DNA of 64,000 bases from a virus. Taxonomy: Duplodnaviria > Caudoviricetes. This document shows, in pieces, positions 55,247-57,108 of this stretch (position 1 is the stretch's first letter; each line of letters begins with the position of its first letter). The notes beneath the pieces were generated by a model. The model worked only from the letters and a program-made list of their open reading frames with translations, was not told the origin of the DNA and made no database searches. Both the position numbers and the translations under genes were made by a program. Where the stretch lies: IMG/VR virus record IMGVR_UViG_3300026177_000194, positions 1 to 64,000 of that record, one strand, 5' to 3'.

Positions 55247-55415
55247 CTTGAAGTTTACACCAATTTGGAAAATAATTAAATTCTCTAGCTAGTTTCTTTT
55301 TGTTTACATTTCTAGATGATTTTTTACAATAATAAGATTGATAAAAATCAGAATAATCTTTATGAATTAAAAATGGACATTCAGAACAACTTTCAATTAC
55401 TATTTTTTTACTCAT
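55230..55415 (-). CDS. Small Cys-rich protein
   Basis: SCSECPF...PNWCKL. Confidence 0.55.
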   Translation of the reverse strand: MSKKIVIESCSECPFLIHKDYSDFYQSYYCKKSSRNVNKKKLAREFNYFPNWCKLQDDTGD

Positions 55416-55587
55416 ATTCTGATAACTCCGTATAATCTTTTTCTGGTGATTCTATAAAACATCTTTTTAAATAATCTTTACCACCATCTACTGAAACTCT
55501 TCCGCAAAAACATGATTTGAAATCATGTCTATGTACAGATTCAATAATATCTTTACAAAAGTTGCATTGAATCTTATTAGTCTTTAT
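55408..55587 (-). pseudogene. Zn-binding small gene decapitated by the IscB element (first 3 codons at 57085-57093)
   Basis: Excising 55588-57084 restores MDK|IKTNKIQCNFCKDIIESVHRHDFKSCFCGRVSVDGGKDYLKRC..., 62 aa, with an upstream SD. Confidence 0.8.
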
Positions 55588-57084
55588 AATAATAACGAAG
55601 AAAACTAAGAGGTCTTTAGACCCTTAGATGAATTCGTTAAAATTCTGTTACCATTGAATTTGATCTTCTTTTTAAAATTTTAACTTCTGTTAATTTTACA
55701 AGTTTCTTCATGCTATTGTTAAATATATCCATAACAATAGCATATCCTGTTGACATCCTTCCCTTTACAAAACAAATAATATTATTACATTTAATTTTAT
55801 CAAATTTTCTAACATTCATAATTTTCCCAGTTGGTATTTTCATTTGACTTCTAATTCCTTTTGTTTGTTGATAATCACCTTTTGATATATTTTTAATATG
55901 AAATCTATTATCTGGAATTACATCTAGAATTGAACAAGCATTATTTATTGGATTGTGTTCTAAATTTAAATTTTGTCTTTTTGATTTAACTAAAAAACCA
56001 TAGGTTTCAATTGAATTTTCAATAATAGAATTCTTTCTGATTATAGATAATTCAGTGTCAGGTTTTCCTTTATATACATTTTTATCAATATTTAAAATTA
56101 TCTTTCCTCTATGATATTCAACATGACAAGTTTTACAAAGTGTTATAATATTTTCTATATTATCTTCTCCTCCATGTTCTCTATGAATAACATGATGAGC
56201 ATGAAGTTCATAATTTTTGGATTTTCCTTTACAATGTCTACATCTAAAATTATCTCTTTCAAAAACTTGTCTTTGTAAATTTAACCATTCTAAATCTTTA
56301 GGACCTTGATAATCTTTTTTTATAGAATTTTTAACAATAATCCAATTTAGATTTGGAAGTATTTTTTCAACCCTTCTAATTTCTCTTTTATGACTTTCTA
56401 TTTTTGATGTTATTGTTGGATTAAATTTTCTATTACTTTTTCTATTTAAAAATCTGCATTTTCTATATCTAGTTTTTCTATTTCTTCTGGTAATTCTATA
56501 TGATTTTCTTCTTTTCATTTTCATTGAAATGTCATTTCTTAATTCTATTGTTGAACTATATACACACTTATTGTTTGCTCTTGATGAAATTCCAATTTTA
56601 CTTGAACTTGGAACAATTGATGATTCAACTTTTTGTCTATAACCACTTGATCCATATAAAAGTTTAATTGTGAAAGGACAATTATTTACAACTTTTGCTT
56701 TCCCATCTTCTAATAATTTTCTTGCTTTTCTTGGTTTACATGGCATTAAAGGTTTACCATGTTTGTTTAGTACAAAAACTAACATATGAGTTTTTTCTCC
56801 TATTCCTGAGTTATGGCTGTTTTCAATCTTTTACCAATTGAAAATTAGCAACTTCCTCTCGACAATGTTATTTTAGCTTACTCATTTAAAACGAGTCAAT
56901 CTGGGTTGACTAAGAGTTTCCTCTTTGTTTACAGTGCCCACTTAGAGCCAGAAACTGAGGCGACATTTCTGGGTAAGATAACTAAAATAACGTAGGTAAA
57001 ATTTCTTTTACCTTAGTCTGGTGAACCAATTACTCTTCTAGATCACTCCAGAAGCCTTAACTCTTAAGAGTTAAGGTGATTCAC
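55588..57084 (-). mobile_element. IS200/IS605-superfamily IscB (OMEGA) element; IS ends read on the plus strand
   Basis: Left end TTAT|13 nt-AAAA-CTAAGAGGTC-TTTA-GACCCTTAG. Right end GAAG-CCTTAACTC-TTAA-GAGTTAAGG-TGAT-TCAC. Confidence 0.85.
55637..56785 (-). CDS. iscB: IscB with intact HNH and apparently inactivated RuvC
   Basis: PLMP motif, bridge helix RRKSYRITRR, HNH HAHHVIHREHGG..N...CKTCH. RuvC-I/II/III read SIVPS, IIVKN and INNAC. Confidence 0.9.
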   Translation of the reverse strand: MLVFVLNKHGKPLMPCKPRKARKLLEDGKAKVVNNCPFTIKLLYGSSGYRQKVESSIVPSSSKIGISSRANNKCVYSSTIELRNDISMKMKRRKSYRITRRNRKTRYRKCRFLNRKSNRKFNPTITSKIESHKREIRRVEKILPNLNWIIVKNSIKKDYQGPKDLEWLNLQRQVFERDNFRCRHCKGKSKNYELHAHHVIHREHGGEDNIENIITLCKTCHVEYHRGKIILNIDKNVYKGKPDTELSIIRKNSIIENSIETYGFLVKSKRQNLNLEHNPINNACSILDVIPDNRFHIKNISKGDYQQTKGIRSQMKIPTGKIMNVRKFDKIKCNNIICFVKGRMSTGYAIVMDIFNNSMKKLVKLTEVKILKRRSNSMVTEF

Positions 57085-57108
57085 TTTATCCATTGTTTTA
57101 AATTCCTT
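56790..57108 (-). ncRNA. omegaRNA (HEARO-type) with 5' guide region 57085-57108
   Basis: Minus strand shows GTGAATCACC...GGTTCACCAGACTAAG...CTACGTT...CCCAGAAATG..CCTCAGTTTCTGGCTCT...AACATTGTCGAGAGG, the typical order of IscB omegaRNA motifs. Confidence 0.8.

Follow-up and report, generated by a model that had tools for sequence, protein, structure and literature searches.

A mobile clade of phage-borne IscB proteins with a replaced RuvC active site and a conserved HNH domain: candidates for natural RNA-guided nickases

Proteins of the IscB group are regarded as double-strand nucleases, and in the published view IsrB is the only natural nickase of their family. IsrB has no HNH domain and nicks the non-target strand with its RuvC domain; it is maintained as a natural nickase in the same family of transposons (PMC13565253) and shows that a nick can suffice. 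IshB, a protein of about 180 amino acids (aa), consists of PLMP and HNH and has no RuvC fold. In the laboratory, base-editor nickases have been made from OgeuIscB and OrufIscB by the single substitution D61A, which removes the catalytic aspartate of RuvC and leaves the HNH domain, and the engineered protein is a working nickase (PMC13180657). For nuclease-active IscB and TnpB, Meers et al. set out a logic of "restorative homing" (10.1101/2023.03.14.532601). Here we describe an iscB gene (382 aa; 55637-56785, minus strand) within a non-autonomous IS200/IS605-family ("ISC") element of 1497 bp (omegaRNA plus iscB; 55588-57084, minus strand) of the IMG/VR virus record IMGVR_UViG_3300026177_000194. 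The window, to which all residue and coordinate numbers refer, comprises 64,000 nt of this 90-kb virus contig. The element type is a known one. What is new to the searchable literature is a conserved, mobile clade of IscB proteins in which RuvC is dead and HNH intact: we found no natural IscB of this kind there, a remark in the Science supplement of Altae-Tran 2021 being possible.

That the protein is an IscB can be seen from its N-terminus and its domain order. It matches the RRXRR family (PF14239, E 6e-42, residues 3-147) and the HNH family (PF01844, E 2.5e-10), carries PLMP at residues 12-15 followed by the arginine-rich bridge helix (RRXRR), and retains the domain that interacts with the transposon-adjacent motif (TAM), so that PLMP, RuvC-I, bridge helix, RuvC-II, HNH, RuvC-III and the TAM-interacting domain follow each other as they do in GstIscB (ISGst), OgeuIscB, KraIscB-1, OrufIscB and IscB.m13. 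The RuvC positions were placed by phmmer alignment to the solved OgeuIscB (7xht, 11hr), by a profile of 36 relatives and by a 25-sequence alignment. At RuvC-I, D61 of OgeuIscB (GIDPG) falls opposite V58 (SIVPS in SSIVPSSS); at RuvC-II, E193 (VVLEL) falls opposite V151 (WIIVKNS); at RuvC-III, the H-Y-L-D-A of the solved IscB falls opposite P279-I-N-N282-A283. The catalytic D/E/H..D is therefore absent, its positions being held by V58, V151, P279 and N282. A preliminary description of this DNA, made from the letters alone, had claimed that the three acidic RuvC positions are replaced while PLMP and HNH are intact. Alignment with active IscBs bears this out, except that the change it gave as "IVE to IVK" relied on K152, whereas the glutamate corresponds to V151; neither residue 151 nor residue 152 is acidic in any member of the clade described below. 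All nine HNH residues are present (C182, C185, H197, H198, N212, C217, C220, H221 and H225), so that the HNH domain that splits RuvC has both its zinc cysteines and its catalytic His/Asn/His.

The RuvC fold itself is, according to the structural model, kept as a scaffold from which the catalytic residues have been lost. In the AlphaFold model (pLDDT 77.5) strands 53-58 and 145-153 span the RuvC-I and RuvC-II positions, the best Foldseek matches of the model, at E about 1e-15, are structures of IscB (8csz, 9liq) and IsrB (8dmb), and a profile alignment to HfmIscB extends over residues 3-379. The protein is therefore no IsrB, since the HNH domain is there, and no IshB, being a 382-aa protein with a RuvC fold. 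With IsrB it shares the state of a natural single-nuclease member of the same transposon family, but here HNH is the nuclease that is left and a nick of the target strand would be expected. With IshB it shares HNH as the sole potential nuclease, but it has in addition the RuvC fold, the bridge helix, the TAM-interacting domain and a full-size HEARO omegaRNA. The engineered D61A proteins lack the same catalytic aspartate and keep HNH, but they are laboratory single point mutants, whereas four positions have been replaced naturally here and fixed by evolution. Compared with the known IscB proteins, this one differs in the clade-wide replacement of its RuvC catalytic residues, in a deletion of about 16 residues after the RuvC-II strand, in its size (382 aa, whereas the nearest active relatives have about 420 and OgeuIscB has 496), and in that its carriers, where the context is clear, are phage genomes.

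The loss is not a peculiarity of one gene. Relatives drawn from a search of 5.8 billion proteins number about 25, with 49-99% identity and lengths of 340-416 aa, and in all 25 a hydrophobic or small residue stands in place of the RuvC-I aspartate and of the RuvC-II glutamate, and the deletion behind the RuvC-II strand recurs. The canonical D, E and H..D are found in the next relatives, whose identity is about 45% and whose length is about 420 aa. Maximum-likelihood analysis unites the members in a single clade (25/25, SH-aLRT 100). A library of representatives at 50% identity has one representative for the nearest part of this clade, scoring 698 bits, and every other representative scores at most 365 bits. 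One sub-branch (P0020-P0027) retains the RuvC-III aspartate only, which suggests that RuvC decayed stepwise after a single loss. The HNH residues are invariant in the 25 relatives with the exception of C217, which six of that branch's seven members have replaced by an aspartate; the catalytic H197/H198, N212, H221 and H225 are unchanged down to 49% identity. The window protein retains every residue that is invariant in the clade.

Several observations tell us that we are dealing with a living, mobile lineage and not with a wreck: pairwise dN/dS within the clade is 0.14-0.30 (dS 0.1 to 1.35), an omegaRNA alignment of 12 loci contains compensatory changes in 38 of its 75 predicted pairs, and copies that are 96-99% identical are found at different sites. 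Open reading frames (ORFs) are of full length across the 25 members. The clade is found mostly in phage contigs, at unrelated insertion sites and always co-oriented with the neighbouring genes: between baseplate genes (L001), ahead of a topoisomerase gene (L005), ahead of a tail-sheath gene (L008), behind a clamp-loader gene (L011) and ahead of a dCMP deaminase gene (P0018). The RuvC active site appears to have been lost once and never restored, and HNH, the TAM-reading domain and the omegaRNA are under purifying selection. Outside the clade, a further seven IscB representatives (P0127, P0131, P0164, P0219, P0261, P0267 and P0269) have replaced the RuvC-I aspartate by N, K, C or E and keep the His/Asn/His of HNH. 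P0219 stands apart in the tree and P0131 pairs with P0164. At least P0127, P0131/P0164 and P0219 look like independent cases of RuvC alteration, and IscBs that retain HNH may have lost RuvC several times.

The limits of the element follow from two other copies. The metagenomic copy L065 is 98.7% identical to the window across exactly the 1497 bases of 55588-57084, and L012 is 96.1% identical across the same span; the flanks are unrelated in both. Similarity breaks off sharply at GTGAA at one end and just ahead of ATAAA at the other, which fixes the element at 55588-57084 and lends independent support to the limits proposed in the preliminary description. At other sites the element measures 1497 bp (L065, L012, L066) or 1493 bp (L001). 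We also considered other boundaries, in which a single ATAAA is kept or in which ATAAAGA lies inside the element, as similarity to L012 first hinted, and rejected them because they break the reading frame of the interrupted gene; the ATAAA(G) shared with L012 is target motif, not element sequence. A search for the flanks of L065 in the window's own 90-kb record gave no real match. The subterminal hairpins, the insertion 3' of a short AT-rich motif, the lack of a target duplication and the ends held in common with a TnpA-bearing element place it among non-autonomous IS200/IS605 elements, and iscB is the only protein gene in its 1497 bp. The left end in TnpA orientation (55588-55636, plus strand) consists of 19 nt followed by the hairpin AAGAGGTC-TTTA-GACCCTT, and on the iscB strand this same hairpin, with a T-run, resembles a terminator (hit at 55623-55610, minus strand). 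The "top" strand of TnpA is the plus strand of the window, so that iscB is antisense to it.

On the 3' side of iscB the element is abutted by ATAAA (55583-55587, minus strand; TTTAT on the plus strand). The flank on this side opens with ATAAA at six independent sites (the window, L012, L065, L066, L068 and L001), the chance of this motif at a fixed place being about 0.006 at this base composition. ATAAA had been named in the preliminary description as a reported IscB TAM, and it is indeed the published 3' TAM of KraIscB-1 (PMC11610941), IscB.m13 (PMC13622844) and OrufIscB (PMC13180657). TTTAT, for its part, is the transposon-adjacent, TnpA and TnpB2 motif of Geobacillus ISGst, where one TnpA mobilises TnpB and IscB elements (10.1101/2023.03.14.532601), and the identity of TAM and transposase target motif is another trait that this element shares with known IscB elements.

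The insertion has interrupted a small gene. When 55588-57084 is deleted, ATGGATAAA is joined to ATAAAGAC and an ORF of 62 aa results, beginning MDKIKTNKIQCNFCKD (MDKIKTNKIQCNFCKDIIES...), as had been claimed. It has the same length as GP64 of Geobacillus virus E3 (MPKIILNMIKCKHCGD...), to which it aligns without a gap, and its N-terminus is matched by an intact homologue in viral contig L149 (MQKIKSNKIQCNFCKD...; begins MQKIKSNKIQCNFCKDIIES). The part left on the 3' side, 59 codons and the stop of a CxxC...CxC protein (55408-55587, minus strand), is identified by this reconstruction and by colinearity with E3 GP64, L149, L148 and L155; the only DNA match in the phage GenBank collection is the E3 GP64 homologue. 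No Pfam or PHROGs family was found for this gene or for its small neighbours. The insertion point lies between two tandem ATAAA, after codon 3 of the gene. Both copies are needed for the reconstruction, so that both must have been in the original gene and the element must have inserted between them without duplication, which is how IS200/IS605 elements insert. In the reconstructed empty site a guide match of 16-24 nt is followed at once by ATAAA, in agreement with the earlier statement that the motif would stand directly 3' of the guide match.

Immediately upstream of iscB lies an omegaRNA scaffold (56786-57084, minus strand), made up of a HEARO core (56848-57084) and of a stretch at 56786-56847 with an extra conserved hairpin and the Shine-Dalgarno sequence (SD) of iscB. 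The core matches HEARO (RF02033) with 113.2 bits against a cut-off of 83, over model positions 1-211 of 211. The scaffold starts with GTGAATCACC at 57084, and 5' of it stands the guide flank, 24 nt read directly as AAGGAATTTAAAACAATGGATAAA (57085-57108, minus strand), between the CCA of a tRNA and the scaffold. This flank holds an SD (AAGGA) and ATGGATAAA (57085-57093), which are codons 1-3 of the interrupted gene, and it thus carries the SD and start codon that the preliminary description had placed there. At every other insertion site the element is flanked by a different sequence, and in the relatives the guide is formed by the last codons, i.e. the 3' end, of the upstream gene. As in known IscB elements, then, the guide comes from the flank, the TAM ATAAA is on the 3' side, and the element is non-autonomous and co-oriented with the upstream gene. 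The geometry of guide, TAM and empty site, as reconstructed, matches that of published IscB restorative homing.

What, then, would such a protein do? The best reading, which we consider reasonably probable, is that the element encodes an omegaRNA-guided target-strand nickase that serves its homing or retention. Transcription would probably proceed by read-through from upstream phage genes, here the PTH2-like gene and the suppressor tRNA, and the transcript would adopt the fold of a HEARO-type omegaRNA, with the phage sequence of the flank as its 5' guide. The IscB-omegaRNA complex would find the empty site through guide match and ATAAA, and HNH alone would cut the target strand. In replicating, recombination-prone phage DNA such a nick should suffice to trigger re-copying of the element into the excised site or into an element-free co-infecting phage, homing of the kind that has been shown for IscB and TnpB with active nucleases. 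Movement to new sites would be a separate matter, probably carried out in trans by the phage's own TnpA. The nick would fall on the strand that TnpA acts upon, three bases from the TTTAT insertion point, and one may speculate further that it exposes single-stranded DNA and so biases TnpA re-insertion towards the guided site. Predicting a nickase is reasonable because IsrB is a natural nickase and D61A IscBs are laboratory ones. More tentatively, and with a probability that we put slightly below even, a whole phage-borne lineage may have given up double-strand cutting and may be spreading as a self-reprogramming, RNA-guided target-strand nickase, a mirror image of IsrB.

I-HmuI of SPO1 is a nicking HNH homing endonuclease of a phage. 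Phage T4 has the free-standing Seg and Mob endonucleases (PMC13565253). In common with these, the IscB described here (with its HNH) is a phage-borne enzyme among phage genes, and copying of the element would be driven by a nick or cut in the allele that lacks it; in contrast to their recognition through protein-DNA contacts, an RNA guide would be reset at each insertion. If the reading as a nickase is true, target-strand nicking would be a viable natural strategy for the retention or homing of a transposon, and a single nick would be enough, perhaps even preferable in a phage genome, for homing of the OMEGA type. It would also offer a compact, ready-made nickase of 382 aa with a defined ATAAA TAM, and a natural system in which to ask why phage-resident elements might avoid double-strand breaks.

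A number of points weigh against this reading. For every clade member it is from the catalytic residues alone that nicking is predicted. A search of viral contigs for the exact 21-mer junction yielded no natural empty allele of the insertion site; its three matches (L145-L147) were rejected as empty alleles, having unrelated flanks and only 24 nt in common, as expected by chance in AT-rich DNA. A few clade members stand in contexts that are not clearly viral, such as the sugar-biosynthesis genes around P0019. Between the window gene and its closest copy, L065, there are 10 non-synonymous and three synonymous differences (dN/dS 0.79, on small numbers), and the window's own copy could be drifting. 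L016 (529-1674), which is 80% identical and comes from a viral contig, is interrupted at codon 51 by an in-frame TAA and is a decaying member of the clade. Finally, at the omegaRNA-side end the fit to the resident TnpA consists of TTCAC alone, the hairpins there being different.

One may also consider a protein that binds without cutting, i.e. an RNA-guided repressor or roadblock in which the HNH residues serve for zinc binding and folding only. RuvC is dead in the window IscB, and nuclease-dead OMEGA relatives are known to have become RNA-guided transcription factors (10.1101/2023.11.30.569447); TldR, the nuclease-dead TnpB of this kind, is likewise an OMEGA effector that has lost its RuvC catalysis in nature. 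However, TldR is immobile, has a fixed guide and no nuclease, whereas the RuvC-dead IscB clade has kept HNH and is mobile, its guide changing with each site and not remaining fixed beside a regulated gene. Transposon ends and TAM are intact, and the invariance of HNH residues extends beyond the zinc cysteines to H197/H198, N212, H221 and H225, all of which makes a mere binder improbable. A second possibility is that double-strand breaks are still made, the HNH nick being completed by another OMEGA nuclease of the phage, by a host nuclease or by fork collapse. Nicks do turn into one-ended breaks at replication forks, and the same phage record has at least three TnpB-like genes. TnpB, however, uses its own omegaRNAs and a 5' TAM, nothing ties it to the guide of iscB, and the element brings no partner gene with it; we consider completed breaks unlikely.

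A third proposal concerns the tRNA. The preliminary description had suggested that 3' processing of the upstream tRNA frees an omegaRNA with a defined 24-nt guide, setting its 5' end and explaining the position of the element. The tRNA (57109-57184, minus strand; ARAGORN, Rfam tRNA 52.3 bits) has the anticodon CTA, of the amber suppressor type, and its encoded CCA at 57109-57111 is indeed 24 nt from the scaffold start at 57084, as had been noted; a guide of this length is amply sufficient for IscB. It starts one base past the PTH2-like ORF (57186-57500, minus strand; peptidyl-tRNA hydrolase family, weak Pfam and PHROG matches), and on the minus strand no sigma-70-like promoter match was found between that upstream gene and the tRNA, so that co-transcription is plausible. 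Nevertheless, in about 118 other IscB loci no tRNA stands close upstream of the IscB gene: between the end of the nearest one on the same strand and the IscB match there are about 480 nt, and that end falls roughly 180 nt short of where the omegaRNA scaffold would begin. In the loci of the RuvC-dead clade there is none at all, and the relatives take their guide from the 3' end of the protein-coding gene upstream. Bacterial tRNAs with an encoded CCA mature by exonucleolytic trimming after a downstream cut, with no precise cut at the CCA, and the tRNA would therefore not define precisely the 5' end of a downstream RNA. IscB elements are in general co-oriented with any upstream gene, a bias from which Meers et al. 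inferred read-through from upstream genes (10.1101/2023.03.14.532601), and such read-through probably accounts for expression here as at other IscB loci. A functional role of the tRNA thus has little in its favour, and since no close upstream tRNA is found at the other loci, its proximity appears to be incidental, a consequence of the insertion site and not a mechanism.

Taken as a whole, the sequence observations of the preliminary description were confirmed one after the other, the RuvC-II pairing being the sole slip. Of its interpretation, the loss of RuvC with retention of HNH stands, and proves to be clade-wide and selected, and the geometry of guide, TAM and empty site fits restorative homing; the tRNA mechanism finds no support. 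That the clade or the window copy is an inactive relic in decay, as the premature stop of L016, the dN/dS of the pair formed by the window and L065, and the destruction of a gene by the insertion might be taken to mean, is the least probable explanation of all, possible for the window copy and unlikely for a clade with full-length ORFs, low dN/dS across large divergence, omegaRNA covariation and near-identical copies at new sites, the window protein itself keeping all that is invariant.

A source of transposase in trans may be at hand, as the record contains two genes for Y1 TnpA, each followed by an ORF of TnpB size. The first belongs to a resident autonomous IS605 (9760-11503, minus strand) with TnpA at 10864-11250 (Y1_Tnp, 133 bits) and a TnpB-like gene at 9776-10867, and with PHROG transposase matches; the second is an IS605 at 20023-21488 (minus strand) with a different left-end hairpin. 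A TnpB-only element (TnpB of 443 aa; about 53383-54806, minus strand) has a left end identical to that of the first IS605. The left end of the iscB element is identical to the latter (11455-11508, minus strand) at 47 of 55 positions, three copies of its core 23-mer are present in the window, and TTTAT abuts the left ends of all three, i.e. the iscB element, the IS605 at 9760-11503 and the TnpB-only element. On the omegaRNA side, the terminus ...GATTCAC compares with ...AATTCAC at the right terminus of that IS605, TTCAC being common. Since left-end hairpin, TTTAT and TTCAC are shared, the phage has its own IS605 network, and the TnpA at 9760-11503 is a plausible candidate for the trans-acting transposase that would move the iscB element. 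In this respect jumbo phages may be hosts of interacting IS605 networks, in which TnpA, TnpB and IscB elements have common ends, as Geobacillus chromosomes are.

The record is probably part of a very large (jumbo) phage, given a CheckV completeness of 19% at 90 kb, and its GC content is 28%. On the minus strand, the order at the locus is PTH2-like ORF, tRNA, 24-nt flank, omegaRNA scaffold, iscB, hairpin with T-run, and the remnant of the small gene, which in its intact form started 15 nt past the tRNA. The CTA anticodon led us to consider recoding of TAG. ORFs in the 64-kb window lengthen less with TAG as sense than with TGA or TAA as sense, TAG is the stop of 12 among 84 long ORFs, and nothing in these figures points to its use as a sense codon in the window, so recoding was rejected.

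Some minor observations concern the effect of insertions on neighbouring genes. The stop codon of the 62-aa gene and the start of the small CxxC gene that follows overlap (ATGAGTAA, 55408-55415, minus strand), and the insertion, together with the terminator-like hairpin of the left end, may disturb the expression of this downstream gene. A 49-aa ORF (54784-54933, minus strand) continues into the left end of the TnpB-only element; this is thus another element by which a phage gene has had its 3' end changed. At gene-end insertions (L001:3692-3706, L012:1964-1978, L008:3683-3697) the first bases of the scaffold, G-TGA, substitute for the target's A-TAA, and the upstream gene keeps its last residue and a stop (AANK*, NSEL*, IEKL*), which looks like a built-in means of inserting at a stop codon without changing the protein. 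At the opposite, ATAAA-side end, the last 10 nt or so of the element are variable and contain GGAGG in two copies (L001:5187-5204, L066:1774-1791), at SD distance from the following ATG or TTG; in these copies the element may supply a ribosome-binding site to the downstream phage gene. The window copy has CGTTATTATT at this place.

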